A stretch of 64,000 bases of DNA from an uncultured virus (IMG/VR IMGVR_UViG_3300034073_002641) (taxonomy: Duplodnaviria; Heunggongvirae; Uroviricota; Caudoviricetes), in the IMG/VR virus record IMGVR_UViG_3300034073_002641, positions 1-64,000 of that record. One strand, written 5' to 3'. The notes under the pieces are model-generated. The model was given only the letters and a program-made list of their open reading frames with translations, was not told the DNA's origin and made no database searches. Both the position numbers and the translations under genes were made by a program. This document shows positions 20,297 to 52,577 of the stretch, piece by piece; within the stretch, counting starts at the first letter, position 1; the number at the start of each line of letters is the position of its first letter.

Positions 20297-20665
20297 ATGA
20301 ATGAAGAGATTATATTAGAACTAGTTAGCACTCAAATTCAGTTTAGGTTCTTGCATTGGCAAACAAAATCATATGCAAAGCACCAGGCTTATGGTGCTTT
20401 TTATGAAAATCTGGATGATTTGATTGATAAGTATGTTGAAGTTTGTATGGGTAAGCATGGTCGTCCTGAGTTTGGGGGTGATTTCTCAATGGAGTTTAAA
20501 GATATTGAGGGATTTTCAATGCAGGAGTATCTGGATGATTTTACAGAGTTTTTGATGAGTTTATCAGAAAAATTAACAGAAGGAGAAGACACTGATTTGC
20601 TAAATATCAGAGATGAAATTTTGGCAGAAGTGAATAAAATGAAATATTTATTAACACTTAATTAA
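20297..20665 (+). CDS. ferritin/Dps-like protein (DUF5856-like)
   Basis: LHWQT.SYA.H.A, Y..L..LID..VE, LLNIRDE. Confidence 0.75.
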   Translation: MNEEIILELVSTQIQFRFLHWQTKSYAKHQAYGAFYENLDDLIDKYVEVCMGKHGRPEFGGDFSMEFKDIEGFSMQEYLDDFTEFLMSLSEKLTEGEDTDLLNIRDEILAEVNKMKYLLTLN

Positions 20666-20666: not shown

Positions 20667-21563
20667 TTGATTAAATCAATTTGGAAGCCATTTTATTATA
20701 AATCTAAACCTAATTATTATACCAAAATTGATGGGAAATATTTGGATAATAAAAAAGGAACTACTGGTTATAAAGTTATTTGGGCTTGTGATTCTTTAAC
20801 ATGTAAAACACCTAATAAATTGCACTCAATAAATGCGTGTCATTTAATTAAGGATAAATTGAATTTTGATATTCAAATATGCAGACCTTGTCAATGTAGT
20901 GGTGATGGTAATGGTAGATTTGGTGATAATAGAAAATGGAGTGATTTTCATAGTGAAGAAAGAGTTAAAGAATTAAAATTAATCTATTCTGAAAAATGGA
21001 AAGGTGCTAAAAATCCCTCTTTAATTGATGATGTTAAAATAAAAAAGAATCAAAGTATAATAAATGAAGTTTTTTTAAAAAAAATAGTAAATAAAAATGG
21101 TTTTAAATTGCTATCATTATTAGATTTAGATGGTAAAAATAGTAAATTAGTTGTTGAGTGTAAAAATGGACATATTTCTGATAAAAGATATGTTAATTTT
21201 GCTGCTAAACATAAAAAATTTATTTGTAGTTATTGTTATTATGATTCAATAAAATGTGGTTTTAAAAATGAGGATTTATTAGAATATATGAATTATGCTA
21301 AAAAAGTGCGTTCATTAACAAAAATCACATATAGAAGATATAAAGACATAATTAACCCTAACAATTATAAAATTGGTAAATACTTATATCATATTGATCA
21401 TAAGTATAGCATATTTGAAGGTTTTAAAAATAATATTCCTCCTGAAATTTTGTCAGCAAAAGAGAATTTAGAACCAATTTTGGGAAGTGAAAATTGTTCA
21501 AAACAAAGTAAATGTTCGATAACTAAAAATGAGTTATATAACTTAACTACTTATTTAAAGTAG
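20667..21563 (+). CDS. free-standing HNH-type homing endonuclease
   Basis: Zn-finger Cys clusters; C-terminal YHIDHKYS...NLE....N.SK. Confidence 0.65.
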   Translation: MIKSIWKPFYYKSKPNYYTKIDGKYLDNKKGTTGYKVIWACDSLTCKTPNKLHSINACHLIKDKLNFDIQICRPCQCSGDGNGRFGDNRKWSDFHSEERVKELKLIYSEKWKGAKNPSLIDDVKIKKNQSIINEVFLKKIVNKNGFKLLSLLDLDGKNSKLVVECKNGHISDKRYVNFAAKHKKFICSYCYYDSIKCGFKNEDLLEYMNYAKKVRSLTKITYRRYKDIINPNNYKIGKYLYHIDHKYSIFEGFKNNIPPEILSAKENLEPILGSENCSKQSKCSITKNELYNLTTYLK

Positions 21564-21598
21564 TTATATATTTATTGTAATAAAAAAAATAAACGACT

Positions 21599-23080
21599 AT
21601 GAAAAAAAACAATCAGGTCCTGGTAGAAAGTGGAATTAGAGATATTGATGCTCTTGCAAACCGTTATAATAAAGCGGAGATCTACTTTCACCAGGACCTC
21701 TGAGGGCTTGATGGTGTTACATCGGCTTTAGCTATGAAAAAATACTTGGAAGATAATGGCATTGAAGTTATTGATGCACATGTTATCCAATACGGGGATA
21801 TGGAGTTTGCTGTAAAGAAGAATGATGCCCTAGGGGATACTATGCCTGTTCTAGTGGATTTTGCACATGGAAAACCTATGTTCAAAATACATACAGATCA
21901 CCATGATAGCCAGATTGGTGTTGATACCAAAAAAACATCAGGACAATTTAAGAAAGCAAGGTCAAATGCTGAAACCATTTCACAAGTTATTTCAAAAAGT
22001 GATTTGTTTAGTGATACAGATATTTTGATAATCAATACAGTGGATTCGGCTGATTTTGTTAGACAAGGTTTAACCCCAGACAATGTTATCAATTACTTAT
22101 ATAAGTATGATAAGTCAAAATCAATGAGGGAGAATAAATTATTACTTGGTCTTGTTGCAAATAAATTATTATTGGCATTTAAGAATAAGAAAGGATTTCT
22201 TGAATATCTTGTAATGAATTCAACACCATCTATATTATCTATATTGAATAATATTAAGAAATGGATGAAAGAGAATACAGATGAATTACCAGAGGATTTG
22301 CAGATGAATGCAGAGAAATATATTGAATCAATGAAAGACAGTCCAAGTGTTAAATATGAGGATGGTATTATATATCAATATGGTATGGGTACTTTAAAGG
22401 GTACAGGATCATATGATAGATATGTTGCATTTAAGAATCAACCAGATGCAAACTTTTTGATTATTTATTGGCCATTGGGTTTAATCCAGGTTTCAAAAAA
22501 TCCATTTAAAGAAAATCCAAAATACAAGGCACTTCATTTAGGGGAATTAGCACAAAAGGTTATGGCACAATTCAAACCAATGTTGGAAGATAAGTTAATC
22601 TTATTATCAACAATGAAGTGGGTTAATGAATCAAAAGCAAAGGAAGATAGTGTTGGATTTACATACAATGATTTTCATGCAACATATGGGGATAAGTATT
22701 ATACAAAACCTGGTGCGCCAAAAACAAATGCTGAATTGAAATCAATTATGGATAAGTTATTTAGTGAATTAACAGAAGATGAGAAACAAAAATTAGATTG
22801 TGTTGCATTAAATGCTTGGGATATAATCCAAGCAAATAGTGGTGGTCATCCAAGTATTACAAACATTTCAGGATTGAACTTCATAGGTAGGGGTAAAAGG
22901 CCTCCTGGTCCAAGAACACCAAAACCAAAATCAACAGAACCAAGAACAGCATCATCAGAACCAAAATATGTCAAATCTGATTCTAAAAAAGAGGGCGGAG
23001 AGACAGAATACTTGAGTTTAATGAAAACTATTGCAAGTAAAATTAAAGATAAGTTAGAAACAGAAGTTAGCAAATATTAA
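21599..23080 (+). CDS. DHH-family phosphoesterase; N-terminal 45 codons include an in-frame TGA at 21701-21703
   Basis: FHQDL*GLDG, VDFAH, TDHH and SGGH motifs; ATG 21599 is in frame with ORF 21734 and follows TATTTAT. Confidence 0.75.
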
Positions 23081-29998: not shown

Positions 29999-31018
29999 AT
30001 GGAAAGGAAACTTGCAAGCGTTAGAAAAATATCAGATTTAAAGCCTATTGAAGGTGCTGACAACATTGAACTAGCCATTGTTGATGGATGGCAAGTTGTT
30101 GTTGCCAAGAATGTTGAACATAAGGTGGGTGATTTCATTGTGTATTGTGAGATTGATTCCTTCTTACCCATTAGGGAAGAGTTTGAATTTTTAAGGAAAT
30201 CTTCATATAGGAAATCAACTGAAGCAGAGGGTTTTCGATTGAGAACTATAAAAATGAGGGGGCAAATCTCCCAGGGGTTGATATTGCCTATTTCTGTTTT
30301 AGGTTCTGAAATATCTCTTGAAGAGGGTATGGATGTGACAGAAATGTTGGGTATTGTGAAGTATGAAACACCAATTTCACCTGAACTTTCTGGGCTGGCA
30401 AAAGGAATGTTTCCATCCTTCATTTCCAAGACAGATGAAATTAGAGCCCAGAATATTCCAAATGATTATAAGACATATATAGAATCAAATGATGATTTCT
30501 ATATAACAGAAAAACTGGATGGATCCTCTGCAACATTCTACATAAACAATGGTGAGTTTGGGGTTTGTTCAAGAAATCTTGAACTATTGGAAACAGAGGG
30601 GAATACTTTCTGGAAGGTTGCAAGGGAACTTGATTTGGAGAACAAGATGAGAGCCAAAAACAAGAACTTTGCAATACAAGGTGAGTTGATTGGTGAGGGC
30701 ATCCAGGGAAATCGCTACAAGATAAAAGGTCATACAGTTAGGTTCTTTACAGCATTTGACATTGATGCTCACAAAAGGTTTAATTACGCAGAGTTTGCTA
30801 TGTTTATGGCCCAGAACCAGTTGGAGGTTGCACCACTCTTATCAATTAGGGCTGGAACAGATTTGCCAAAAACAATTGATGAGTTATTGAAGTTTGCCGA
30901 AGGTAAGTCATCCTTGAATGAAAAAACAGAAAGAGAAGGTATTGTAATTAGGACATCTGACAATGTTATTTCATTTAAAGCCATTAGCAATAAGTTCTTA
31001 TTGAAGGACAAAAACTAA
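29999..31018 (+). CDS. ATP-dependent RNA ligase, Rnl2/DRB0094-like
   Basis: N-terminal IEGADNIE module; TEKLDGSS, QGEL.G, EGIV and FKAIS ligase motifs. Confidence 0.9.
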   Translation: MERKLASVRKISDLKPIEGADNIELAIVDGWQVVVAKNVEHKVGDFIVYCEIDSFLPIREEFEFLRKSSYRKSTEAEGFRLRTIKMRGQISQGLILPISVLGSEISLEEGMDVTEMLGIVKYETPISPELSGLAKGMFPSFISKTDEIRAQNIPNDYKTYIESNDDFYITEKLDGSSATFYINNGEFGVCSRNLELLETEGNTFWKVARELDLENKMRAKNKNFAIQGELIGEGIQGNRYKIKGHTVRFFTAFDIDAHKRFNYAEFAMFMAQNQLEVAPLLSIRAGTDLPKTIDELLKFAEGKSSLNEKTEREGIVIRTSDNVISFKAISNKFLLKDKN

Positions 31019-39902: not shown

Positions 39903-40121
39903 ATGAACAAATTTGCTTATGTATTATTGGCATCTATCATTATTTGTGGATGTGAAAAAGATGGTGAAGTTATATCTACCATAAATAGTAGATATATAAA
40001 AACCTATATTATTGATGAATGTGAATATGTGGGAAGTGTAGTAGGGGGTAATAGAGATTTTCTTGCCCATAAAGGGAATTGTAAATTTTGTGCAGAACGC
40101 AACAAAAGAAACTGCCAGTAA
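39903..40121 (+). CDS. small lipoprotein-like protein
   Basis: Signal peptide with Cys; ID.CEY and HKGNCKFC. Confidence 0.6.
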   Translation: MNKFAYVLLASIIICGCEKDGEVISTINSRYIKTYIIDECEYVGSVVGGNRDFLAHKGNCKFCAERNKRNCQ

Positions 40122-40164
40122 GTAGAAATTTAAAATACTGATATTTATAAATAAATCAAAATAG

Positions 40165-40614
40165 GTGATAGATTTGAAGCAAACTATTAAAAGTGTGATA
40201 AGGGGTTATTTGAATGAAAGTATTGAAAATTCAGAAGAACTAATTCAGCAAATAAAAAAATCACTAATAATGGAAACATTAGTAGATGAAGAGGAGTTTA
40301 ATGAGTTATATGATGGTGATTTGGATTTAGCCTGGAAAAGTTTTGTTGATAATCAAGAAAATGGGGATTGCCAGGGTATTGTTTCAACAATTATTTATGA
40401 GTTCAAAACTGTTAAAAAAGTATTTGGTGAGATAGAAGTAGATGAACCTTATATTGATGAATATGGTGATGAACAAACATTAATGACCCATCACTGGATT
40501 ACAATAAATGATAAGATATATGATTTTTCAAAAGGCACATTACGTGATTATATAACTTGGGATGATGTATATGATGTTAATGTGGAAGGTGATGAATGGA
40601 GGTATAAGGATTAA
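40165..40614 (+). CDS. LNE-leader protein with possible Cys-His-Asp (transglutaminase-like) triad
   Basis: GDC...HHWI.I...IYD; TATTTAT at 40142. Confidence 0.55.
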   Translation: MIDLKQTIKSVIRGYLNESIENSEELIQQIKKSLIMETLVDEEEFNELYDGDLDLAWKSFVDNQENGDCQGIVSTIIYEFKTVKKVFGEIEVDEPYIDEYGDEQTLMTHHWITINDKIYDFSKGTLRDYITWDDVYDVNVEGDEWRYKD

Positions 40615-40668
40615 TTTTTTTGGAAATTTAAAATAATTAAACTATCTTTGTATTCTAAACTAATAACT

Positions 40669-41082
40669 ATGAAATATAACATTTATTTGGATGACGTGCG
40701 TACACCTATAACTAGCAATATCAGATGGATTATAGTTAGAAGTTATGATGAATTTGTTTCCAAGATAACTGAACTTGGGTTAGAAAACATTAAACTTATA
40801 TCATTGGATCACGACTTGGGTGATACAGCCATAGAAGAGTGGCATAACAATGTATATCACAATTTCACATTGGACTACAACAACATCACAGAAAAAACTG
40901 GAATGGATTGCACCAAGTGGTTGGTTGAAAAATGGATGGATGGTGCACCAGTATGTGAGGTTAAGGTTCATTCAGCCAATGCAATTGGATCTGCAAATAT
41001 GATGGGTTATATCAACAACTACAAGCATATAACCAGACAACCCCAGGATTGCATAAGGTGGGTTGTCCCACATACTGTTTAA
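40669..41082 (+). CDS. receiver-like (cyclic-phosphate processing) domain protein
   Basis: YLDD.R.P, SLDHDLG, TG.D..KWL, HSAN..G. Confidence 0.7.
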   Translation: MKYNIYLDDVRTPITSNIRWIIVRSYDEFVSKITELGLENIKLISLDHDLGDTAIEEWHNNVYHNFTLDYNNITEKTGMDCTKWLVEKWMDGAPVCEVKVHSANAIGSANMMGYINNYKHITRQPQDCIRWVVPHTV

Positions 41083-41095
41083 ATTAATTAATAAT

Positions 41096-41626
41096 ATGGA
41101 ACTAAGAAAAGTTATAGTAAAAACAATACGTAAATATTTGAATGAAGAACAAGAAGTTGAAAATAACTTAAATAATAATTTTAGGAAGTGGTTTAGTGGT
41201 AGTAAAGTTGCTTATAACGGGAAACCATTACCTGTTTATCACGGTTCATATGAAGAGTTTGATGAATTTATGGGTATTACGTATTTCACTCCTGATTATT
41301 ATAATGCCGAGGGGTATTCTAGGGATGGAATTGTTTATGAAGTTTATTTGAGTATTAAAAGACCATTAATTTTGGATTGTAAAGACAAAAAATGGGATGA
41401 TATTGAGAGTGAATATGGTACTTCCACAAGAGAAGTTGTGGCAAATGTTTATAAAAATAGAAGTAAATATGATGGTGTTATCTTTGTGAATGTAAAAGAT
41501 TCTTGGATTGATGACGAAGATTATCAAGATTCAGATAGTGTTTATGTTACATTTGAACCAAACCAAATTAAATCAGTTGATAATGATGGAACTTGGGATA
41601 TAAATAATAATAACATTTTTTCTTAA
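41096..41626 (+). CDS. LNE-leader protein with ADP-ribosyltransferase-like (ART-PolyVal) domain
   Basis: F..WF..SKV, P..VYHG, YFT, VYL.I..P, YDGVI, F.PNQIKS. Confidence 0.65.
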   Translation: MELRKVIVKTIRKYLNEEQEVENNLNNNFRKWFSGSKVAYNGKPLPVYHGSYEEFDEFMGITYFTPDYYNAEGYSRDGIVYEVYLSIKRPLILDCKDKKWDDIESEYGTSTREVVANVYKNRSKYDGVIFVNVKDSWIDDEDYQDSDSVYVTFEPNQIKSVDNDGTWDINNNNIFS

Positions 41627-41716
41627 ATTTGTCCGCTGTATAAAAAATAAAATAAAAAAGTTTGCATTATCAGAATAATTTTATATCTTTGCACTTCAAT
41701 TATAAAAACAACAAAA

Positions 41717-41980
41717 ATGGTAACTACAAAAGAATTAAACTGGATGTTGAACGCAGCAAAAATTACTAAAGAATATGCTGAATGTGTAGAAAAAAAGTTT
41801 ACTGGTAAATTACCTTATAGAATGGTTATGAATGCTATCTTAAATAATAGCTGGACTAACAAGTCTGAAAACAATAGTTATTGGAGTGTAAGTAATACTG
41901 ATAGTGATAAAATAAATTATTCCATATATTACACAATGAAAACAGGTGTAGTTGAATTTACGGTTCTTGAAGCAAAATAG
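41717..41980 (+). CDS. hypothetical protein
   Basis: ORF after promoter 41661-41691. Confidence 0.55.
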   Translation: MVTTKELNWMLNAAKITKEYAECVEKKFTGKLPYRMVMNAILNNSWTNKSENNSYWSVSNTDSDKINYSIYYTMKTGVVEFTVLEAK

Positions 41981-42013
41981 TTTAAAAGGTTTGAAGATGA
42001 TTCCACATACTGT

Positions 42014-42388
42014 TTAAAATTGGGGACAGAAGTGGTATTTTGATTTTGGTTTTTTATCTTTAACAATGGAATATATTATTAAGGATCCAACCAATGAACC
42101 CAATGCGGTTGCAGCAGCATCACCAACATCAAAATACTTGTTTCCATATACTGATGCATCATAGGATTCTTTTAATAATCCAATACCAGCCCCAGCAAAT
42201 ACGCTTTTTTGAATGATTTCTCCATACCCAATATGTATATTTGGTTTCTTATGGGTTAAAGTTATGGTTGCACCAATGCCAACACCAGCACCAAAGTGTA
42301 ATAGTTTATCCTGGGGAATTTGACCAAATGAATGGCTTGAAATAAAAAGTGAAATTAAAAGTGAAATTAAAAGAAATATTTTCTTCAT
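42014..42388 (-). CDS. secreted/membrane protein with DK.LH...KE..D...D motif (YfiM-like)
   Basis: Signal peptide and motif pattern. Confidence 0.6.
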   Translation of the reverse strand: MKKIFLLISLLISLFISSHSFGQIPQDKLLHFGAGVGIGATITLTHKKPNIHIGYGEIIQKSVFAGAGIGLLKESYDASVYGNKYFDVGDAAATALGSLVGSLIIYSIVKDKKPKSKYHFCPQF

Positions 42389-42568
42389 ATTGTTTGACTT
42401 GTTGATTTATTATAAATATCTTTGTTGAATAAAAAACAACAATATATGAGGAGTAAGATTTTCCAAGAAATATTAGATGAAACACCAAAAGGTGTAAAAA
42501 TCTTTGTAAGGTTTTATGCCAACTTGGTAATCCGCATCAATCAGTTATTGGGTAAAAAAAAATAAATT

Positions 42569-42796
42569 ATGGAAATAGAAGATTATGTAATAACTCATCT
42601 TGGTGAAGGAAAATTCCAGGTAAAAGTGGGAGAGGATGAAGTTAAAGAAGCTGGTTCAAACTTATGTGGTATGGTTAGATATACTTACTTTGAAGATTAT
42701 GCTTTGCCTGAAATTGGATGGGAAGTAACTAGAAAACAGTTAATGCAAGACTATTTACCAAAGATGTTAAAAGATGCTTCAGGTAAATTAAAATAA
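42569..42796 (+). CDS. hypothetical protein
   Basis: 75-aa ORF. Confidence 0.5.
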   Translation: MEIEDYVITHLGEGKFQVKVGEDEVKEAGSNLCGMVRYTYFEDYALPEIGWEVTRKQLMQDYLPKMLKDASGKLK

Positions 42797-42821
42797 ATAT
42801 TAAACCAAAAAAACAATAACC

Positions 42822-43748
42822 ATGAGAAGTAATTCATTATCCAATAAAGGGTTGTCTTTATCGCAAGCACAATCAATCTCCAATCTTTGCAATCAAGAGG
42901 CAAGAGATATTCAGTCAAAGATTGATAGTGTTAATAACTCTCATAAGACCTTAACATTACCAAGTGGGGTATATATTGAGACACAGGGAGTTAAAATGCC
43001 AGAGAACATTGTGGATTTGCTTCAAGAGAAAGCAAGGCTACACGCAACGCAAGCATTCCTAATGGATAATATCCAGGCAAAGGATAAGATGCTTGATGCT
43101 TTAAAAAAGAAATCATTTACCTTTGATGTCCCCCAACCTACATCACCAAATTATGAGGTTATTGATTACAAGGATGAGGTAAATGAAGAGTGGGGTTGGC
43201 AACAATTAACCTCAAGCGAATACAATGAGTATTTGGAGGCAGAAGCCTTTGCTGCCCATTATGGTCAGTTTATCCATAAGGGTGGTAAATTGGATAAATT
43301 AAGAAATGAATTGCCAAAGTTAAAAACTCTGGAATGGATTGAATTAGAGAGGGAGAAGAAAACTCCAATGAATGTTACCATTCATCATACAATTGATGAG
43401 TTGGGTGAGTTGCACAAAAACTTATCTGCTATTCATAGACAATATGAGCAGAAAGTTAATTATTACAAAGCAAAGGTAAAGAACCTGGTTACATTGGAGA
43501 ATGCAAAAATTGCAAATGAGAATGCTGGTTTACAAACTTTGGTTAATGAGGCCAACAACAAGTTGAATATGCAATACTCTATTGCAATTCAAGAATGGCA
43601 GGGTAAGAGAAAGAAAGCCGAACTAGAATTTAATTCCAAAATCCAGGAAGAAACTGGAAGAGTTGCTGCATTAAGAATTATGGTTGATGCAAGATTTAAG
43701 CCAGTTGTTGATCAGTTCTTGGGAACAATTGGTGATAGCAAAGAGTAA
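42822..43748 (+). CDS. alpha-helical/coiled-coil hypothetical protein, directly upstream of a structured RNA
   Basis: 308-aa ORF; GLS.SQA..I.N and E..AA..G.FIH..G motifs. Confidence 0.75.
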   Translation: MRSNSLSNKGLSLSQAQSISNLCNQEARDIQSKIDSVNNSHKTLTLPSGVYIETQGVKMPENIVDLLQEKARLHATQAFLMDNIQAKDKMLDALKKKSFTFDVPQPTSPNYEVIDYKDEVNEEWGWQQLTSSEYNEYLEAEAFAAHYGQFIHKGGKLDKLRNELPKLKTLEWIELEREKKTPMNVTIHHTIDELGELHKNLSAIHRQYEQKVNYYKAKVKNLVTLENAKIANENAGLQTLVNEANNKLNMQYSIAIQEWQGKRKKAELEFNSKIQEETGRVAALRIMVDARFKPVVDQFLGTIGDSKE

Positions 43749-43756
43749 GGGGTAGT

Positions 43757-44045
43757 GTGGGGTGTTTTGCAGGAGTTTAAGCACCCCCACTTTTATGTGG
43801 GAATGGGAGGTATATTAATGACCGGTTAACCGAAAGGTTGACAAAAAACTACAAATGATGAATATCACAACCGCCAACTTACAAACATAAAACTGGGATA
43901 GAACCCAAACATTACATAGGTTGCATTAAATTGTTAATTATGTAATAAAAAGGGTCTTGGTTTTTGTTTTTGCCTTTGAAGTAAGTTGGGTCTTTGATTT
44001 TTATTTTGATTTTGTTTTTGTCTATATAACTTCTCATTTCTGCAA
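43757..44045 (+). ncRNA. putative ~290-nt rod-like structured RNA
   Basis: Nested long-range complementarity (see findings). Confidence 0.55.
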
Positions 44046-44069
44046 CTTGAATTTTTAAAAAACAATAGT

Positions 44070-44258
44070 ATGGCAAAAATTATGGATGTTTCTGAACAAG
44101 TATTTAAAGACGTTAGGTATTTAAATGTAATGCAATTACGTAACAAAGTGCCTCATGGTGTACATGATCAAGTAATTTTTAAAATATGTGATACATTGGA
44201 AAATCAAGTGAATGATAAAATATATATTCAAGTAGTACAAAATACAAAGTTAAATTAG
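44070..44258 (+). CDS. small helical protein resembling the MKNV family
   Basis: V..QV pattern similar to the 57-61 kb array. Confidence 0.45.
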   Translation: MAKIMDVSEQVFKDVRYLNVMQLRNKVPHGVHDQVIFKICDTLENQVNDKIYIQVVQNTKLN

Positions 44259-44309
44259 GTTTTATGAAAACATTGATGTATCTTTGAATTGTCAATAAGG
44301 AATTATGAT

Positions 44310-44389
44310 AGTTATGTGGGCGTAATGCGGAATGGTTTCCAAGTCCATTAAAAACGGTTGCTTATCCGGTTCGAATCCGGCCCTGACTA
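44310..44389 (+). ncRNA. tRNA-like RNA 1 (acceptor and T arm, no anticodon arm)
   Basis: CCGG-TTCGAAT-CCGG then CCTGACT-A; promoter TATCTTTG at 44279. Confidence 0.6.
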
Positions 44390-44479
44390 CAGTTGCAATG
44401 CAGCTAATTGCCTTACCCTGACAGGAACAAAAACCTAGAGGCTTATAAGTGGGTGACAGCTTGGAAAGACAGGCAATTT

Positions 44480-44559
44480 AGTCAGGTGGGCGTAATGCGG
44501 AATGGTTTCCAAGTCCATTAAAAACGGTTGCTTATCCGGTTCGAATCCGGCCCTGACTA
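44480..44559 (+). ncRNA. tRNA-like RNA 2 (75-nt exact duplicate of RNA 1)
   Basis: AGTCAGG/CCTGACT acceptor; 44486-44560 equals 44316-44390. Confidence 0.65.
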
Positions 44560-44621
44560 CGCAAAAAACATAAGATGGAGTTTCCTTGCCTTGTAAGAGA
44601 TGGGTTTTAGAAATCTTAACT

Positions 44622-44743
44622 AGTTAGGTAGCTCAGATGGGTAGAGCAACTGGTGACGACGGTTCGAGTCCGTTCCATATGAAAATATGAGGTGTGTAGG
44701 GTATCAAGCGAGTGTGACGCAGGTTCAATTCCTGCCCTGACTA
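44622..44743 (+). ncRNA. tRNA-like RNA 3 (two T-loop hairpins)
   Basis: AGTTAGG/CCTGACT acceptor, GCTC/GAGC D arm, inner GGTTCGAGTCC and outer GGTTCAATTCC. Confidence 0.6.
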
Positions 44744-44885
44744 CAAACAATTAAAATTATGAAAGAAGATAAAACATGGCTAATATTTCCAATGTTTACT
44801 TATACCAAATGTTCAGATGGTACAAATGAAATAGGTTTTGGGTGGCTAAATAGAACTTATTGGGTTAAATGGTAAAATAAAAATC

Positions 44886-45068
44886 ATGAAAGAATTGAAG
44901 ATTTACGAGTTTCAAGCAAAGCAAATTGAAGATACATTTAGATTGGTTGCAAGATCACTTGATAGTAAAACCAAAACCGCAAGCATTGATAGAGATGTAA
45001 TGCAAAGTTGGGAAATGATTAAAAATGTTCTGTCTGAAAAGATAGACACCCATGTACCACGATTTTAG
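44886..45068 (+). CDS. hypothetical protein
   Basis: 60-aa ORF inside the RNA cluster. Confidence 0.5.
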   Translation: MKELKIYEFQAKQIEDTFRLVARSLDSKTKTASIDRDVMQSWEMIKNVLSEKIDTHVPRF

Positions 45069-45121
45069 CTATTGGCTATAACTAATTACTTGGTAAATAT
45101 TGGTTTTAAAAATATAAATAC

Positions 45122-45234
45122 AGCAAGGTGGCGAAATTGGATAGACGCTTAAGGGTTGGGTGGATGTTGCAACGTAAAACAGAGAAAATAACCTTATAAA
45201 ATCCACCGTGTGAGTTCGAATCTCACTCTTGCTA
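45122..45234 (+). ncRNA. tRNA-like RNA 4 (Leu-type shell with insert)
   Basis: AGCAAGG/TCTTGCT acceptor, GGCGAAATTGGATAGACGC D arm, GTGAG-TTCGAAT-CTCAC. Confidence 0.65.
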
Positions 45235-45301
45235 CAAAAACAAAATAAGTTAAAAATAGATTTGGTTTTCTAAAAATCTTGATGTATCTTTGAGGTATGG
45301 T

Positions 45302-45429
45302 AGCAAGGTGGCGGAATTGGTTAGACGCTAATTAACTTAATTTTAAGTGATGTGAGATGTAGATACAACTGATGCACACTGTTGGAACAGATATAAAACA
45401 TCATACAGGTTCGAATCCTGTCATTGTTA
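45302..45429 (+). ncRNA. tRNA-like RNA 5 (Leu-type shell with insert)
   Basis: Same shell; own promoter at 45261-45292. Confidence 0.65.
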
Positions 45430-45451
45430 CCTTTTTTAAAAAAATAATATT

Positions 45452-45700
45452 ATGATTATAGAAGTAATTTATTTAATATCAGTATTCATCTTAACTTTTT
45501 GGGTAGGATTTTTCATTGGTCAAAATGTATTAATAACTAGAATTAACAAAATTATTGAAGATATGAAACCACAAATGAATCCTTCTGGTAAAGGAAAATG
45601 GGCTTCTTTTTGGGGTGATAAGGTAAAGAAGAATATCAAAAGGATGTTCTCCAAATCAGATCGCCAAAAATGTAAATTAGATATTCAAAAAGATTTATAG
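45452..45700 (+). CDS. small membrane-anchored protein
   Basis: N-terminal transmembrane segment. Confidence 0.5.
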   Translation: MIIEVIYLISVFILTFWVGFFIGQNVLITRINKIIEDMKPQMNPSGKGKWASFWGDKVKKNIKRMFSKSDRQKCKLDIQKDL

Positions 45701-45796
45701 CAAGGTGGTGGAACTGGTTAGACACGCCGAAAGGTAGGTACGGTATGGATCCCGATTAAATAATCCTAAATATAGGTTCGAATCCTATTCTTGTTA
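45699..45796 (+). ncRNA. tRNA-like RNA 6
   Basis: GTG/CAC D stem (compensatory change relative to GCG/CGC); ATAGG-TTCGAAT-CCTAT. Confidence 0.65.
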
Positions 45797-45868
45797 CAAA
45801 GCTGACAACCTAGTGATTGATGTACAAAGCTGGTATATAAGTTGTTGACAGCCTGGAAAGACAAGCAA

Positions 45869-45982
45869 AGCAAGGTGGCGGAATGGTAGACGCAAAACAG
45901 AAATCAGAAGGATGCTGACGTTAAACAAAACTGTTCTGGGCTGTTGAGCCTAGCTTGTAGGTATCAAATCCTGCCCTTGCTT
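45869..45982 (+). ncRNA. tRNA-like RNA 7
   Basis: AGCAAGG/CCTTGCT acceptor, Leu-type D arm, CTGGGC/GCCTAG arm, T-like arm. Confidence 0.6.
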
Positions 45983-46024
45983 TTTTTAAAAAAGTTTGTA
46001 TATTTATTGCTAAAATAAATAAAC

Positions 46025-46438
46025 ATGAAAAGATTTTTTGACAAAGTAATTAAAACAGATTATTGTTGGTTGTGGACTGCCTGTTTGAGGGGTGAAACTG
46101 GCTACGGAGTGTTTAAAATAAATAAAAAAACAGTTGATTCCCATAGAATGTCATATATATTACATTATGGTGAAATTCCAGAAGGATTATATGTCTGTCA
46201 TAAATGCGATAATAGAAAATGCGTTAATCCTGAACATTTATTTTTAGGCACTCCAAAAGATAATTGGCAAGATGGATTTGACAAAGGTAAAATAAAATTG
46301 TTAGGTGGAATTAATATTGAAAAATTAAAAAAACACCCAAGTTTAGGAGCGTATAATAGAGGTTGTAGATGTGATGAATGTAAAAACTTAAAATCTATAC
46401 ACTATAAAAATTGGAAAGATAAAAAACTATTACTCTAA
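46025..46438 (+). CDS. HNH endonuclease (HNH_3-like)
   Basis: CW.WT...GYG, HR.SY, VCHKCDN..CVNP.HL..GT..DN. Confidence 0.9.
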   Translation: MKRFFDKVIKTDYCWLWTACLRGETGYGVFKINKKTVDSHRMSYILHYGEIPEGLYVCHKCDNRKCVNPEHLFLGTPKDNWQDGFDKGKIKLLGGINIEKLKKHPSLGAYNRGCRCDECKNLKSIHYKNWKDKKLLL

Positions 46439-46446
46439 AGATACGT

Positions 46447-46635
46447 TCTGGTTAATCACCAGATAGTATGCCCAATATGAAGAAACAGAGTGATTACTGT
46501 ATGGGCACGTACATTGACGTATAGGGAGAACGTCAGAGGATGTCACCTCGACCTCATCAGGACAAAATGACTATTCCTAACCCCCTTCTGTGGGGGGACA
46601 GCCATAACATCTGTAAGTTGGATAAATTAGGGTGT
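46447..46635 (+). ncRNA. putative multi-hairpin structured RNA
   Basis: At least five short stems in a relatively GC-rich non-coding stretch. Confidence 0.45.
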
Positions 46636-46640
46636 TAATT

Positions 46641-46726
46641 AGTCAGGTGGCGGAATGGTAAACGCTATACTTAAGCAGTTGAAGCTGGGTAATTCAACAA
46701 TATAGGTTCGAATCCTATCCTGACCA
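46641..46726 (+). ncRNA. tRNA-like RNA 8
   Basis: AGTCAGG/CCTGACC acceptor, Leu-type D arm, GTTGAA/TTCAAC hairpin, T arm. Confidence 0.6.
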
Positions 46727-46766
46727 CAAAACTTTTAAAACTTAATATTTATATATAAAATAAAAT

Positions 46767-47318
46767 ATGAAAGATTTGAGAAGAATTATTAAAACCACAA
46801 TTCAAGATTTTTTGAATGAGGATATTGAATTTCTTTTAAATAAAGAAAGTGATGACTATAACCATATTATTAATGACTATGGGGTTAAAGATATAACCAA
46901 AGTACATTCTGATATAGTTAAGTTTTCTAGGGAAGCAATTGAAATATTTAAAAATAAAATAGATTTATTCAAGGATATTAGAATAATATTTGTCAATAAT
47001 ATTGGAGAAGGTGCTTTAGGTAGATTTAGAAGTGGTACAAGTTCATCAATACCAATAGTTATTTTATCAGAAAAGGATATTTTAGAAGGTTCTAAAGAAT
47101 ATAATGTACCATTATGGGTGACAGTTGAAACAACAATATTTCATGAACTTGGACATGCAATATGTGAATTAGAATATGATTTATTTGGTTATGAATATTT
47201 AGAATATGGTGATGAAGAAGAATGGGTTGAAAACTTTGCATATGAATTACATAATTACGGTGATATACCACAAGATTTAGAAACTTTTATTAAAGAATAT
47301 AAACAAAAACATGAATGA
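46767..47318 (+). CDS. LNE-leader protein with HExxH zinc metallopeptidase-like motif
   Basis: TIFHELGH and EE..E; TATTTAT at 46746. Confidence 0.65.
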   Translation: MKDLRRIIKTTIQDFLNEDIEFLLNKESDDYNHIINDYGVKDITKVHSDIVKFSREAIEIFKNKIDLFKDIRIIFVNNIGEGALGRFRSGTSSSIPIVILSEKDILEGSKEYNVPLWVTVETTIFHELGHAICELEYDLFGYEYLEYGDEEEWVENFAYELHNYGDIPQDLETFIKEYKQKHE

Positions 47319-47634
47319 GAAAATAATATGTGCTGCTATTTGGTATAAAAACATTGAACTTAAAAAGGAATTACCAATTGAGGTTTATCTTCCAGCAAAC
47401 CTTGATAGGGGTATTGTTTTTAGTGGCCATAGGCATGGGCAATGTATTTACACAAAATATGCTATTACAGGGTTAAGAGATGCTGAAAGTGGTGAAAATG
47501 AACAAGGGTTTTTGACATCAAAAAATAGGTTTGTTAGCCGTGAAGAGGGGCTTCAAATTGCATTACAAGAAAACCAGGTAATTGATTTATCCCAAATTAG
47601 GGGCAACAGATTGTTTTCAGAAGACTTATATTAA
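47311..47634 (+). CDS. hypothetical phage protein (ICAAI...G.RH...QGFLTS.NRFV.R.E...LFSEDLY)
   Basis: Motif pattern typical of phage accessory proteins. Confidence 0.65.
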   Translation: MNEKIICAAIWYKNIELKKELPIEVYLPANLDRGIVFSGHRHGQCIYTKYAITGLRDAESGENEQGFLTSKNRFVSREEGLQIALQENQVIDLSQIRGNRLFSEDLY

Positions 47635-48032
47635 AACAAAAATTATGAAAATATTAGACATTAAATTAGAAACAGAAAACGGATCCACTTCCTTGGGGTT
47701 TAGCCAAATTTTAGTGGATTATATCACTAAAAATCAAAAATGGGATTATGTGTTTGATTGCATTATGAATGGTAAAAAAGTAGATAAATCTACCTGGGAT
47801 TATTAAAAGTATTTTACTATCTTTGAGGTCTAAACAAGAATAAAATGATTACAGAACCCAATGAAATTTATGTTGAAGCACCAGTAGTGACCATTGATAA
47901 ATCAAATGGTTCAGAGGAAATCCTTGTTGTTCATACCTATATCAATCATGATAGGGGTAAGATGTTTCTAACCAAGGCTGAAGCTGGGTTATTATTACTT
48001 GAACTTTATAAATTCATTAAAAACTAAATAAG

Positions 48033-48269
48033 ATGGCAAAAGCAATATTGGAATTTAATCTACCAGAGGATATGGAGCAATTTATGTTGGCTGCAAAAGG
48101 TAGGGACATAATGATGACTTTATATGAACTGGATCAACACTTGAGGTCAGAGACAAAGTATGCACCAGACACAATGAGCCAGGAGGTACATGATGCTTTG
48201 GTTCAAGTTAGGACAACCTTACATGAATTGATGGATAGTAATAATGTATCATTTGATTTAATTAGTTAA
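48033..48269 (+). CDS. hypothetical protein (MAKAILEFNLPED)
   Basis: 78-aa ORF. Confidence 0.55.
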   Translation: MAKAILEFNLPEDMEQFMLAAKGRDIMMTLYELDQHLRSETKYAPDTMSQEVHDALVQVRTTLHELMDSNNVSFDLIS

Positions 48270-48296
48270 TGGATATATTTATTGTAAAAGAACTAT

Positions 48297-48779
48297 ATGA
48301 AATTACAAGAAAATATTGATAGGTTAAAACAACTTATTCAATCCAGACCAACAAATTTGGTTGAGGACAGTAAAGTTATGGCAAATAGTGCAGAGTTTAT
48401 TGAAAATGTAAGTGAACACCTAAAAAATCTGGGCATCCAGTTTTCTATTGAAAATGAACAACCAAATGTGGTTCTTTTTGAGTTATATACAATGGATGTG
48501 GCATCTTATATTCAAATTGAACATAATAGTGGTAAATTTAGTGCCTTTCTATATATCACATTAGATGATGATGAAACATTGTATGATGTTGATTGGGAAG
48601 AGGGGGGTTATACCAGCATAGAAGAAGAGATTGATAACTTAATTGATGAGGTAAACAAATTAGGTGAAGTTGTTTCAGAAGTTAGTGGTAAATTAAGAGA
48701 AATCATTAAAATATGTGATGAAAATGATATAAATCATGAGAAATTCATTGCCATTCATTACAAAATGAAAAAGTTTTAA
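48297..48779 (+). CDS. acidic hypothetical protein with LQE/LVE leader
   Basis: TATTTAT at 48276. Confidence 0.55.
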   Translation: MKLQENIDRLKQLIQSRPTNLVEDSKVMANSAEFIENVSEHLKNLGIQFSIENEQPNVVLFELYTMDVASYIQIEHNSGKFSAFLYITLDDDETLYDVDWEEGGYTSIEEEIDNLIDEVNKLGEVVSEVSGKLREIIKICDENDINHEKFIAIHYKMKKF

Positions 48780-48837
48780 ATAGATTTGCATTTACCAGTT
48801 TTTAGGTTTATCTTTGCTTTATCAAAAAAACAAAAAC

Positions 48838-49437
48838 ATGATAAACAACCTGGACATAATCAAACCATTACTAAACTTCACAGAAGAGGGTGATTTCTAT
48901 ATGTTATATATTCTTAAAAGAAAGAAGGATCAACCAAAAGAGGAGAGAGATAATCACCAGTCATCCAGAACCATTAAAACGTATTGTATTGATAGCCTGG
49001 ATTATCTTGATAGCAAATATGAAGAGATTATGCAGTTATCAGAACTCTTCAAAGCAAGAACCTACATTCACATTCAAAAACAGAACCATAAAGATGTGGC
49101 CTTGGATATGATGATGCTTTTGGCTGAAAGAATCAAAAATGGACAACATAATCAGAAAAATTTATTTGAGAGTGTTGTTGGGAAGGTAAAAAGAATGGAG
49201 AATAGATGGATTGTTGATATTGATGATAAAGATGAAAAAGAATTAGCAAAGACTATTGCTATACTTGATGAAACTAGACCAGGGGGTAATAAGGTTGAAG
49301 CAGTAATCCCAACTAAAAGTGGTTATCATTTAATCACAAAAAGATTTGATGTTGATATGTTTAGGAAATCATATCCCCAGGTTGACATTCAGAAACGTAA
49401 TCCAACTTTGTTGTATTTTCCTAATAGTTTAGATTAA
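48838..49437 (+). CDS. hypothetical protein, possible AEP/primase-like fold
   Basis: IVDID and TKSGYH motifs. Confidence 0.5.
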   Translation: MINNLDIIKPLLNFTEEGDFYMLYILKRKKDQPKEERDNHQSSRTIKTYCIDSLDYLDSKYEEIMQLSELFKARTYIHIQKQNHKDVALDMMMLLAERIKNGQHNQKNLFESVVGKVKRMENRWIVDIDDKDEKELAKTIAILDETRPGGNKVEAVIPTKSGYHLITKRFDVDMFRKSYPQVDIQKRNPTLLYFPNSLD

Positions 49438-49520
49438 ATAATTGAAAAAAAAATAATCATTACATTTGGACTTCTGCAAACTTTAGTTTATCTTTGTGAG
49501 GTAATCAAACCAAAAGAACA

Positions 49521-50018
49521 ATGGAAAGAATTAAGTTAAAAAATGTGAAATATTCTGCAAAGTTTTCAGAAGAAACTTATGCATTCCAAGCAGATATTTT
49601 TTTTGATAACAAAAAAATTGGATATTGTATAAATAGGGGAACTGGTGGGAGTACTGATTGCAACCTTTGGGATGGTGAAGCCAAAACCAAAGAGGCTTTC
49701 AAAAAGATGGAAGAATATTGTGATAGCCTAGGCATAGAAGGTTATGGTAATAAATTGGAGTGGGTTGTTGATGATTTGTTCCAAAATTGGTTAACAAATC
49801 AAGCAATAAAGAAAGATGAAAAGAAGGGAATTCTTTATGGAGATACAACAAAATATACCATACAGACTTTTGTTAATGCTGGAAGTGGCAAGAGACTTTC
49901 AATGGTTGATTTAATAAAGAATGAAGAGGCTATTAAAATGTTGAGAACTTTTTGTTCAAAAGTTAAAAAAGAAGGTCATACTGTGTTGAACACAAACTTA
50001 CCTTTTAATGTTTATTAA
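49521..50018 (+). CDS. hypothetical protein (SEET..F.A...N.G.GG)
   Basis: ORF after promoter 49465-49496. Confidence 0.6.
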   Translation: MERIKLKNVKYSAKFSEETYAFQADIFFDNKKIGYCINRGTGGSTDCNLWDGEAKTKEAFKKMEEYCDSLGIEGYGNKLEWVVDDLFQNWLTNQAIKKDEKKGILYGDTTKYTIQTFVNAGSGKRLSMVDLIKNEEAIKMLRTFCSKVKKEGHTVLNTNLPFNVY

Positions 50019-50032
50019 ATAAAAAGAAGATT

Positions 50033-50434
50033 ATGGCAAAGGAACTTTTCTTATTAAGAGGACTACCTGGTTCAGGTAAATCAACATTGGCAGCCCAGTT
50101 GGGTGGATCATTGGTTGAAGCAGATAGATACTTTATGCAGTATGGTGAATATAAATTTGATGCATCAAAATTGAAAGAGGCTCATGCTTGGTGCAGAGAA
50201 GAAGTTAGAAAGTGGATGGAGGTGGATAATTCTGGGTATAATGTTGATAGAATTGTTGTATCTAACACATTCACCCAAGAGTGGGAAATGAAGCCCTACT
50301 ATGAGTTAGCAGAAAAATATGGGTATAGAGTTTATTCCATAGTTGTTGAGAATAGGCATGGGGGGAAGAATGTTCACAATGTGCCAGACGAGGCAATTGA
50401 TAAAATGCGGAAAAGGTTCGAGATAAAATTGTAA
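50033..50434 (+). CDS. P-loop kinase, AAA_33/polynucleotide kinase-like
   Basis: RGLPGSGKST, EAD.YF, VSNT, H.VP. Confidence 0.85.
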   Translation: MAKELFLLRGLPGSGKSTLAAQLGGSLVEADRYFMQYGEYKFDASKLKEAHAWCREEVRKWMEVDNSGYNVDRIVVSNTFTQEWEMKPYYELAEKYGYRVYSIVVENRHGGKNVHNVPDEAIDKMRKRFEIKL

Positions 50435-50438
50435 TATT

Positions 50439-50510
50439 GCCAATATAGTTCAACGGTAGAACACGTCTTTTGTAAAGATGGGGTTGGGGGTTCAAATCCC
50501 TCTATTGGCT
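50439..50510 (+). tRNA. tRNA-Thr(UGU)
   Basis: Cloverleaf; CGTCT-TTTGTAA-AGATG. Confidence 0.9.
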
Positions 50511-50527
50511 CAAACAAATTTAAACTA

Positions 50528-50610
50528 GGGGGTACGCCAGAGTGGGAGAGCTGGGTTTGACTGTAAATCAAATGATTATGTCTGAATAGGTTCAAATCCT
50601 ATTACCCTCA
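50528..50610 (+). tRNA. tRNA-Tyr(GUA)
   Basis: Cloverleaf; TTTGA-CTGTAAA-TCAAA; long variable region. Confidence 0.85.
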
Positions 50611-50780
50611 CTAACTAAAATCAAAAAAATGAAAAGATTTTTAAAAGAACTACATCAAGTAATGGTTGAAGGGTGTTATCCATTAGACCCAATGATTGTT
50701 TATATATTTGGTGTGATTGCATTACTAGGGGCATTAATTCAAATACTATCCTAATTACTAAACAAAAAAAAGCAACAAAT

Positions 50781-51125
50781 ATGTCTGGAGGATTTTTTGA
50801 CTATGACCAATCTAAGATAAAGAATATGATTGATTCTATTGAAGATTTGATTGCAAATAATGGTAGAGTTAAAACAGAACAAGAAATTATAGATGGTGCT
50901 TGGGGTGCTTTTGATGATGATTATTTCAATAAGTATCCAGAAGATATGTTCTGGCATAAATATCCAGATGAAGTTATTGAAGAATTTAAAAAAGGAATAA
51001 CTCATTTACAGATTGCATATATTTATGCACAAAGGATTGATTGGTTGGTATCTGGTGATGATGGTGAGGAATCATTTATTAGAAGATTAAATGAAGATTT
51101 AAGTAAATTAAAAACAGAACTATGA
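50781..51125 (+). CDS. hypothetical protein (MSGG.FDY...WL.SGD.GE)
   Basis: Start taken at MSGG. Confidence 0.6.
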   Translation: MSGGFFDYDQSKIKNMIDSIEDLIANNGRVKTEQEIIDGAWGAFDDDYFNKYPEDMFWHKYPDEVIEEFKKGITHLQIAYIYAQRIDWLVSGDDGEESFIRRLNEDLSKLKTEL

Positions 51126-51373
51126 TAGAATTTGCATTAGGTGCAATTGTCACCACAATTATCGTAACATTATTTTGGTCATTTACTGGTGTTATTTATC
51201 TTAAAGCCAAAGTGAACGCAATCACAGATGAATTAAAAGACAAACAACATGCTAATTCAAACTTCCACAGGGATATTTATAATATCATAGATGAGGTTGA
51301 GAATAGATTTGACAGAAGGCTTGTAGAGTTTGAAAACAAACTTACAGAATTGGATGGCAAAAAATCCAAGTGA
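51122..51373 (+). CDS. membrane-anchored coiled-coil protein
   Basis: N-terminal transmembrane segment. Confidence 0.55.
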   Translation: MIEFALGAIVTTIIVTLFWSFTGVIYLKAKVNAITDELKDKQHANSNFHRDIYNIIDEVENRFDRRLVEFENKLTELDGKKSK

Positions 51374-51380
51374 TTTTAAA

Positions 51381-51512
51381 GTAGGTGTGGTGTAATTGGT
51401 ATCATGTATGGTATCATGTATGGTTTGAATCTTCCACCTACGCAAAAGATAAAAGTATCATGGTTGGTATCATGGTCGGTATCATGTGCGGTGTTTGAAT
51501 CCCACACTTTCT
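51381..51512 (+). repeat. degenerate tRNA-like region with five GTATCATG repeats
   Basis: GTAGGTG/CACCTAC stem, D-like TGGTGTAATTGG, two TTTGAATC; repeats at 12-nt period. Confidence 0.5.
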
Positions 51513-51537
51513 GTTTTACTTTTAAAAAAAAACAATC

Positions 51538-52326
51538 ATGTCAAAAATAAATTTAGACAAATATTATACACCAAAAGAACTTGCAAAATATTGTATTGAT
51601 GTTGTAAATAATCTAGGATTTGAAATAACTGAAACAATTGAACCAGCTGCTGGTGGAGGTAGTTTTAGTTTACAGATACCCAATTGCATTGCTTATGATT
51701 TAGAGCCTGAACATAAAAGTATTATTAAACAAGATTTTCTAAAACTTGAACTACCTTATAAGAAAGGTAGGTTGTTTATTGGAAACCCCCCATTTGGGAC
51801 AAGGAATACTTTGAGTGTTGCTTTTTATAAACAAGCAGCTAAAATGGGTGATTATATTGCTTTTATATTACCTGTTAGTCAATATAACAATAATCAACAA
51901 ATGTATGAGTTTGATTTAATCCATTCAGAAGTGTTGCCTTTAATTAAATATAGTGGTATTGAATTATTATGTTGTTTTAATGTGTACCAAAGGCCTAAAA
52001 ATGGGATTAACAAAAAAGCAATAGATTACAAGTTAAATGATGTATTTGTTGGTGAATATAGAAGAGGTGGAACATATAAAAAACCTGAAACTTTTGATTT
52101 TGCTATGAATACATATGGGGCAAGTATTGGAAAAGAAGTGAAGGAAATAGGAACATTTTGTCAGGAAAATTATGTGATTATAAACAATAAAACATACCAA
52201 GAAAGAGTTTTAGATGTGATGAAAAAGACAGACTGGAAGAATTTATATCCATTTATTTCTTCACCTAAAATTCAAACTTGGAAGATTTATAAGTATTTAA
52301 AAGAACAAATACCTGAATTGAATTAG
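51538..52326 (+). CDS. N6-adenine (or N4-cytosine) DNA methyltransferase
   Basis: YYTP, IEPAAG.G.F, QDFL, GNPPF. Confidence 0.8.
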   Translation: MSKINLDKYYTPKELAKYCIDVVNNLGFEITETIEPAAGGGSFSLQIPNCIAYDLEPEHKSIIKQDFLKLELPYKKGRLFIGNPPFGTRNTLSVAFYKQAAKMGDYIAFILPVSQYNNNQQMYEFDLIHSEVLPLIKYSGIELLCCFNVYQRPKNGINKKAIDYKLNDVFVGEYRRGGTYKKPETFDFAMNTYGASIGKEVKEIGTFCQENYVIINNKTYQERVLDVMKKTDWKNLYPFISSPKIQTWKIYKYLKEQIPELN

Positions 52327-52338
52327 GAAAATACAAAA

Positions 52339-52414: not shown

Positions 52415-52420
52415 GATTTT

Positions 52421-52491: not shown

Positions 52492-52493
52492 CT

Positions 52494-52572: not shown

Positions 52573-52577
52573 ATTAT

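Follow-up and report, generated by a model that had tools for sequence, protein, structure and literature searches.

In the window analyzed here, which comprises positions 1 to 64,000 of a 76,755-base virus record (IMGVR_UViG_3300034073_002641), a cassette takes the place of the plain 5' end in the DHH phosphoesterase gene of a huge phage and interrupts the catalytic motif of that gene with a stop codon. Judging from sequence comparisons, we consider it likely that this arrangement is a programmed short translational bypass borne by a homing-endonuclease cassette.

All elements lie on the plus strand. The left flank of the cassette is a DUF5856 gene (20297..20665; Pfam PF19174, E 6e-20), the stop codon of which abuts the DHH start in the cassette-less relatives L005, L012, and L013. 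The mobile cassette extends over approximately 20670..21721, as delimited by the alleles in run X4 and by blastn edges against L012 and L005, and its right edge is approximate. It comprises a free-standing gene for an HNH-like putative homing endonuclease of 298 aa (20667..21563; assigned from homolog residues, neighborhood, and weak fold matches), a TATTTAT motif (21569..21575) that is likely the phage promoter of the DHH gene, a new gene start, a conserved mRNA helix, and the insert. TATTTAT occurs at most 30 nt from 42 of the 211 ATG starts in G001. In L159 and L160, the HNH-like gene has been lost and the promoter motif, new start, helix, and insert are all kept.

The initial annotation had described an in-frame TGA within a 9-nt insertion in the DHH motif of a frame that opens at ATG 21599 after TATTTAT, and its coordinates are all borne out. 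The first DHH segment, as read from the sequence (21599..21700; ATG at 21599-21601), has 34 codons, the last of which is the take-off codon CTC (21698-21700), and its N-terminus exceeds that of plain alleles by 2-3 residues. The 9-nt coding gap (21701..21709), recognized from the sequence and the insert family, consists of the stop TGA (21701-21703), the spacer GGG (21704-21706), and the landing triplet CTT (21707-21709). The second segment (21710..23080), assigned on motifs, fold, and selection, opens with GAT (21710-21712) and carries the second Asp of the DxD motif together with the VDF, DHH, DSA, and GGH motifs. Its frame is open for 458 codons past the TGA, close to the 450 first estimated, and ends at TAA (23078-23080). 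The hop product would be a protein of 490 aa with AEIYFHQDLDGVTSALAMK at the junction (D-L-D, no extra residues).

Recurrent inserts at one codon of the DHH gene

Removal of exactly 9 nt had been said to restore FHQDLDG. This motif is invariant in all 48 aligned uninterrupted homologs, and therefore exactly 9 nt are extra in the window. An identical insert is present in two further IMG/VR contigs (L001 and L002), and L003 and L004 (88% protein identity) harbor a 9-nt insert with TAA instead of TGA. Independent data agree, as the site is also crossed without a 9-nt gap by contigs of a separate DNA run and of three RNA-library runs (4 of the 24 listed runs were compared with the window). Assembly error as the origin of the insert is ruled out by L001-L004 and by the independent DNA-run and RNA-library contigs.

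The possibility of recurring inserts among homologs, also raised in the initial annotation, proved well founded. Inserts occur at the same codon of the huge-phage DHH gene in 59 of 114 distinct contexts, which share descent and are not independent events, with lengths of 6 nt (40 contexts), 8 nt (3), 9 nt (4), and 11 nt (12). All of them follow the design Leu(CTN)-stop-(0-5 nt)-triplet. The take-off triplet is CTN in 59/59 contexts (CTT 53, CTC 4, CTG 2), and the next triplet is a stop in 59/59 (TGA 45, TAG 8, TAA 6); TGG was seen in none, where by our arithmetic on base frequencies about 6 would be expected if the contexts, which are related, are counted singly. The last insert triplet is again CTN in 57 (CTT 44, CTG 9, CTA 4), with GTT in L159 and ATA in L161. 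The leucine codons first noticed on either side of the stop in the window are thus a property of the family, and the two often differ at the third base, as do CTC and CTT in the window. Uninterrupted homologs abound, numbering 3919 of the 8000 proteins scored. At the same Leu position, plain alleles (n = 55, mostly from the best 80 of 397 homolog matches) have TTG in 28, TTA in 16, CTT in 9, and CTC in 2, so that TTG or TTA accounts for 44/55.

Pattern scans returned 45 viral loci, 46 metagenome loci, and then 51 and 54 viral loci (largely overlapping). The 45-locus scan fixed only YT at take-off, the 51-locus scan fixed CT, and the 54-locus scan fixed CTN-TRR, with TGG allowed. In the metagenome scan, which left the His-to-Gly stretch unconstrained, all 46 matches show the Leu-stop-gap-triplet design.

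Given that 44 of the 59 inserts keep the frame, it could be supposed that the stop is simply read through in the 6- and 9-nt forms and that a -1 frameshift serves the 8- and 11-nt forms, giving a working protein with 2-4 extra residues. In addition, the core CUU-UGA-C, shift-prone in prfB (PMC5009743), opens 35 of 52 inserts, the window having CUC-UGA-G. However, the remaining 15 inserts (the 8- and 11-nt forms) break the frame, and therefore readthrough fails as a common explanation, leaving two mechanisms to be invoked for one conserved design. The extra residues would split the two Asp of a motif that is invariant in 48/48 homologs, the CTN at the end of the gap would be left unexplained, a +1 shift as in prfB would not bring any of the four lengths back into frame (6, 8, 9, and 11 need 0 or +2), and TAA and TAG occur as well as TGA. 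Readthrough or frameshifting is accordingly a very improbable account. One rule mends all four lengths, namely that reading breaks off once the first Leu codon is decoded and starts again just past the last triplet, as a short bypass would do. A two-step route (+1 slip, then an Asp-to-Asp hop) was also considered and fails for the TAA and TAG forms and for the window.

In this genome, TGA serves as an ordinary stop, as previously stated, ending 11 of the 79 called genes in G000 and 34 of the 251 in G001. Genome-wide stop recoding was rejected on this usage in G001 and on the lack of any other credible in-gene stop in six records. The latter result stems from a cross-tblastn of 1753 kept ORFs among G000-G005, in which only the DHH site emerged as a credible in-gene stop; the comparison did not pick up the 11-nt break in G002 and can therefore overlook gaps that break the frame close to a gene start. 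A covariance-model search likewise returned a single insert-type site per insert-bearing record, and the gene is present in one copy in each of five near-complete genomes. Cellular copies were discarded as candidates, since the three GTDB pattern matches are due to chance and none is a DHH gene. For cultured phages, the only matches were two uncultured records, one of which, on inspection, is uninterrupted.

The window protein is a DHH-family phosphoesterase. PF01368 is found in 48/48 aligned members (best E 1.7e-5, the window's protein lying below the curated cut-off), the DxD, D, DHH, D, and GGH motifs are invariant in 48/48 homologs, and Foldseek matches of the predicted structure (mean pLDDT 74) are led by RecJ, NrnA, GdpP, and DhhP. 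The DxD, DHH, and GGH motifs and the fold are common to these enzymes and the phage protein, although the latter belongs to a phage-specific family with only 10-16% identity to them. Both Asp of the DHH-family DxD motif bind metal. PDB sequence searches with the DHH and HNH-like proteins gave nothing useful. Jumbo-phage DHH enzymes have been proposed to counter nucleotide defense signals (PMC7824862). Insert-bearing DHH frames of 584-775 codons in L092, L103, L115, L147, and L161 suggest fused C-terminal domains.

Codon substitutions indicate that the insert-bearing gene is under purifying selection. Values of dN/dS are 0.02-0.23 in 14 insert-insert pairs (one window saturated) versus 0.02-0.07 in 4 plain pairs (one saturated), and VDF, DHH, DSA, and GGH are retained in 39/39 full-length insert alleles. 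The downstream frame is intact in 36 of the 37 insert contexts that are readable to the end (19 run off the locus) and in 41/41 plain alleles. Selection extends to both sides of the gap, with pN/pS of 0.07 over the last 8 codons before take-off and 0.14 over the 8 codons from landing to the next Met. This Met is missing in 2/56 contexts and also in L302 and L303; therefore, restart there cannot be the rule. Insert-bearing clades run deep in the DHH tree. It is possible that the downstream selection could come in part from plain recipients via recombination.

These results bear on the pseudogene alternative of the initial annotation and speak against it. If the gene were dead or split, the insert would only protect from the nuclease and hitchhike, and at most a downstream piece would be made from ATG 21734. 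The enzyme is probably dispensable, as the L091 lineage and L376 bear further nonsense codons. Database entries (P0008-P0010, P0020) begin the product at the downstream Met, and harmful DNA can be spread by homing. Nevertheless, such a gene would hardly keep an intact frame in 36 of 37 fully visible insert alleles or dN/dS as low as that of plain alleles, and codons are conserved before a downstream Met that is itself sometimes lost. Moreover, 33 of 56 contexts have kept the insert and helix while showing no HNH match, and a compensated helix would have no role in a dead gene. We regard loss of the gene as very unlikely.

One lineage, that of L091 (L091, L101, L111, L122, L123, and L146), is a probable pseudogene that has kept its 6-nt insert, lost the helix, and acquired a second in-frame TAA 83 codons downstream; L091 exhibits no clear relaxation (dN/dS 0.09-0.16). 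The diverged 6-nt TAA allele of L376 has an intact helix and a later in-frame stop approximately 268 codons downstream. The link between helix and function is thus not one to one. Finally, the plain alleles of L205 (2497-2584) and L220 are nested among 11-nt carriers and have cassette-like codons and a decayed helix, and precise loss of the insert is likely.

The upstream mRNA helix and RNA libraries

Ahead of the gap, fold and covariation define a conserved mRNA helix in which positions 21615..21634 (5' arm, one bulged base at 21625) pair with 21681..21699 (3' arm, ending inside the take-off codon). In the window, its energy is -37.6 kcal/mol (z -4.0, 0/200 shuffles). Duplex energies are -23.9 to -35.1 in 49/50 insert contexts versus -3.6 to -13.1 in 52/52 plain ones. 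The exception among insert lineages is L091, the one without a helix, which bears the second nonsense codon; L205 and L220, lacking insert and outer helix, retain the inner pairs only (-11.6). Pairing holds in 97.6% of 850 cells (50 sequences), as compared with only 34-48% when the helix register is slid. Four pairs exhibit compensatory change, and 0/500 shuffles reach the observed covariation, in a test that is inflated by relatedness. One pair is G-C in 28 sequences and A-U in 18, and another is G-C in 42 and A-U in 5. Compensation even alters amino acids (V-L-V with CAC, V-L-I with CAT), and several pairs have changed at once, with compensation, in L125, L136, L376, and L377. Codon choice ahead of take-off is fixed and runs counter to the bias of the genome (CAG 56/56, TAC 55, TTT 56, where the genome share of CAG is 0.11-0.32) because the bases involved pair in the helix.

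The helix is 17-19 bp long and is divided by the bulge into 9 inner pairs ending at -9 and at least 8 outer pairs ending between -1 and +3. Its end varies with the gap, lying at -1 or 0 in 33/35 of the 6-nt contexts, at -1 in 3/3 of the 8-nt, at +1 in 4/4 of the 9-nt, and at +3 in 9/12 of the 11-nt contexts. The Spearman correlation is 0.64 for 52 of 54 contexts (L091 and L136 dropped), a value drawn from few independent lineages in which A-rich Lys codons pair easily with CUUU. The helix reaches further in longer gaps, and its end lies 5-8 nt before the landing codon in 49/54 contexts. The 5' arm starts 17-29 nt past the start codon in 48/50, which would leave room for initiation.

Other structural elements were sought around the gap. 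The initial annotation had drawn a CAGG/CUUG hairpin around the stop, which can indeed be drawn but is weak and is not the conserved structure (z -0.4 in the window; mean pair probability approximately 0.4 over 53 insert contexts); it also competes with the long helix. No stable conserved take-off or A-site stem-loop was detected in the gap (mean z -0.15 to -0.57 in the 6-, 8-, and 9-nt classes). A mini Shine-Dalgarno (SD) 6 nt before landing was likewise not recognized, as AGGA sits in the helix arm and is missing from L125, L136, and L377, which retain the helix. An SD 'spring' formed by CAGGA was dropped because these bases are helix arm and vary with compensation, and a short local stem-loop at -51..-19 was discarded because it does not differ from that of plain alleles (p 0.06-0.39). 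An RYKK-like stretch is commoner in insert than in plain alleles.

We infer the following course of events. A ribosome would unwind the 17-19 bp helix, translate 34 codons, and pause once CUN occupies the P site and a stop codon the A site. The helix could then re-form on the mRNA exiting the ribosome, with the inner 9 pairs ending 9 nt before take-off, and its outer G-C-rich pairs would close only if the ribosome moved in the 3' direction. The peptidyl-tRNA-Leu would release its codon and re-pair at a CUN 6-11 nt further on, and decoding would resume at the second Asp to give a normal H-Q-D-L-D-G motif, with terminating ribosomes releasing a 34-aa peptide. By analogy with T4 mobA and gene 60, the gap may also render the DNA site immune to the cassette nuclease. 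The hop resembling T4 gene 60 that had been suggested for the window is in keeping with the recurring inserts, varying stops, CTN flanks, purifying selection, and unspliced RNA contigs. More speculatively, with slightly less than even confidence, we hypothesize that the helix is both motor and ruler. Its refolding would drive an efficient natural stop hop of 6-11 nt without help from a nascent peptide or an SD, and its end would set the hop length. Minimal hop cassettes would in that case join introns and inteins as a third general route by which phage homing endonucleases can change a catalytic motif and still leave the gene alive.

Contigs from the RNA libraries of three studies cover the site, one from X15, one from X16, and four from X17. 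The X15 contig has no gaps, and that of X16 has no gaps and one spacer change. Two X17 contigs are identical to the window, one is an ungapped variant, and one, which is shorter by 3 nt and has 18 further changes, fits a 6-nt allele. None of the six contigs over the site has the 9-nt deletion, although rare forms are lost from assembled contigs, which may also include DNA. Such contigs document the unspliced form and have no bearing on the absence of a spliced one. In X16 and X17, no cover was seen over the HNH-like gene, to which we attach no weight.

The alternative of a micro-intron, in which 6-11 nt would be cut from the RNA, for example by a helix-guided nuclease and a phage RNA ligase, has to be weighed against these contigs. 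The helix does close at the 5' junction, a DRB0094-family RNA ligase gene lies in the window (29999-31018; TIGR02306, E 1.6e-55), and the two non-Leu last triplets (Val and Ile) are harmless if decoded as codons. However, excision would not require a stop in frame, and the triplet after take-off is any of the three stops but never TGG; the 3' junction has no conserved sequence or stem, the insert is kept in RNA-library contigs from all three studies (contigs only), and Rfam gave no match near the gathering score. To our knowledge, 6 nt is below any known intron. The micro-intron is thus poorly compatible with the data, and we give it very little credence. Skipping by RNA polymerase, whereby the helix would pull on the nascent RNA and the CU end would re-anneal at the downstream CTN, finds some encouragement in the strong helix followed by CUUU, which resembles a terminator-like pull. 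It would need no in-frame stop either, and RNA contigs keep the insert; we regard this as the least probable of the alternatives, and extremely so.

Mobility of the cassette

Allele comparisons show that the insert, helix, and new gene start travel with the upstream HNH-like gene as a mobile cassette. When the HNH-like family was searched alone, 23 viral loci were recovered, of which 21 lie directly upstream of an insert-bearing DHH gene, none upstream of a plain one, and one upstream of another gene, while one is cut. Accordingly, the HNH-like gene is found in 23/56 insert contexts versus 0/54 plain contexts. Run X4 (lake DNA) has both alleles, with a contig over 20641-21751 at depth 7.8 and a cassette-less joint of 20670 to 21710 at depth 34, and P0001 is 96% identical downstream yet has a plain start. 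In the DHH tree, for which 67 of 108 rows remained after thinning of near-copies, insert alleles do not form one clade (p-AU 1e-53; 9 changes, at least 5 of them forced). The initial annotation had linked the insert to the adjacent HNH gene as an intron scar; the link is real in the form of a mobile cassette, and the scar found no support.

The 298-aa protein is a putative HNH-type nuclease. In 15 homologs, H242, D244, H245, N267, and N276 are invariant, residues 200-282 give weak fold matches to HNH nucleases (4h9d, Z 4.2, rmsd 4.2, 72 aligned; 5h0o, Z 3.8, rmsd 3.0, 72 aligned), and its Atlas neighbors carry DUF723 or HNH domains. Pfam, NCBIfam, and PDB sequence searches returned no match, nor did Foldseek at E 0.001.

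Further observations concern related elements. In L128 and L129, a 6-nt TAG cassette is joined to a DHH body of the window's clade, and the adjoining HNH-like C-terminus matches that of the 9-nt L003 cassette, from which it appears that cassettes recombine with one another. An HNH-like family member in L330 (1501-2373, 46% identity) has no DHH gene downstream and may have another target. In L304 and L305, past 2192, the translation reads to us as a distant HNH-like domain, then an intein-like segment, and then a terminase-like sequence. In L252 and L253 (equal to G003 1-40000), L242, L249, and L222, insertions of approximately 1-1.7 kb are present in a number of core genes across G001-G003; five of these insertions are in G003, and they are probably inteins or introns.

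Relation to known systems and the probable host

T4 gene 60 and the mitochondria of Magnusiomyces are the established cases of programmed bypassing, to which one more phage candidate can be added. Gene 60 with MobA is the model system (bioRxiv 10.1101/2022.08.31.505936; bioRxiv 10.1101/2024.12.09.627546; PMC7026636), and its parallels with the DHH locus are several. A free-standing HNH-type gene lies upstream and the element brings a new N-terminus and a gap; a take-off codon is followed by a stop and a matched landing codon; a 5' stem-loop would form on the exiting mRNA, 9 nt before take-off in T4, where the inner helix here ends at -9. In both systems, the nuclease is often lost while the gap stays, and insertion into related phages is repeated. 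There are also clear differences: the gap is 6-11 nt here and 50 nt in T4, the codon is Leu CUN rather than Gly GGA, and the gene encodes a DHH phosphoesterase rather than the large subunit of topoisomerase. The DHH locus has no A-site stem-loop or mini-SD, its 5' helix (17-19 bp, reaching the take-off codon) is larger than and unrelated to that of T4, the host is probably a member of the Bacteroidota, and no sequence kinship was seen. The DHH cassette would work like T4 gene 60 but is not a member of the T4 type, differing in gene, codon, and gap length.

In E. coli, the synthetic 'stop hops' of Weiss et al. (1987), as recounted in PMC5009743 and bioRxiv 10.1101/2024.12.09.627546, were low-level and had no stimulator, whereas the DHH site occurs naturally, is conserved, and comes together with an RNA helix. 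According to the 2016 review (PMC5009743), no natural in-frame stop hop was known at that time. In the terminase of Streptomyces phage phiHau3, bypass of two 10-nt gaps is backed by mass spectrometry in E. coli (PMC10732093). These are also short gaps in a phage gene at conserved junctions, but the trigger is a hungry UUA codon rather than a stop, and no nuclease cassette is described in the part of that report available to us. The mitochondrial byps of Magnusiomyces (27-55 nt, 81 copies, an unused sense codon; bioRxiv 10.1101/2022.08.31.505936) are likewise inserts healed at translation with matched codons, although here one copy is present per genome. The prfB (RF2) +1 site shares the CUU-UGA-C core of 35/52 inserts and a slow stop after a slip-prone Leu codon (PMC10798248, PMC5009743); unlike prfB, no frame is restored by +1 here, an RNA helix takes the place of the SD, and the window has CUC-UGA-G. 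A literature search covering mainly open sources returned no paper that deals with the DHH locus or that connects short stop hops with homing endonucleases.

At this locus, a minimal design fits into about 110 nt and exists in approximately 60 natural variants, for which plain alleles, lost helices, lost inserts, and the four gap lengths serve as built-in controls. With this, the model in which exiting mRNA pairs and pushes the ribosome forward (bioRxiv 10.1101/2024.12.09.627546) becomes directly testable without the complexity of gene 60, and the helix and gap may yield a small RNA part for programming ribosome jumps. Gene callers silently truncate such genes, as they did in P0008-P0010 and P0020.

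SD-poor, A-rich leaders and the presence of bS21 point to Bacteroidota-infecting freshwater huge phages (PMC9723584). SD-like leaders precede 22 of 211 starts in G001 and 5-11 of 168-232 in the other genomes, the leaders being A-rich, and bS21 is found in 4/5 relatives and not in G001. Bacteroidia ribosomes hide their anti-SD and frameshift prfB without it (PMC10798248), and we infer that an RNA helix doing the pushing would therefore fit such a host. The tRNA complement was also inspected. ARAGORN calls a Leu(AAG) tRNA at 46641-46727, with a poor anticodon stem, C at position 37, and a 91% identical copy in G003; it may represent a misread Leu(UAA) or else an unusual tRNA. It was rejected as the hopping tRNA on account of this oddity and because Leu anticodons are not tied to the insert across 5 genomes. 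The tRNA set of G003 (L254, equal to G003 40001-60000, and other tiles) includes Ser(ACT), Ile(TAT), and one four-base anticodon call.
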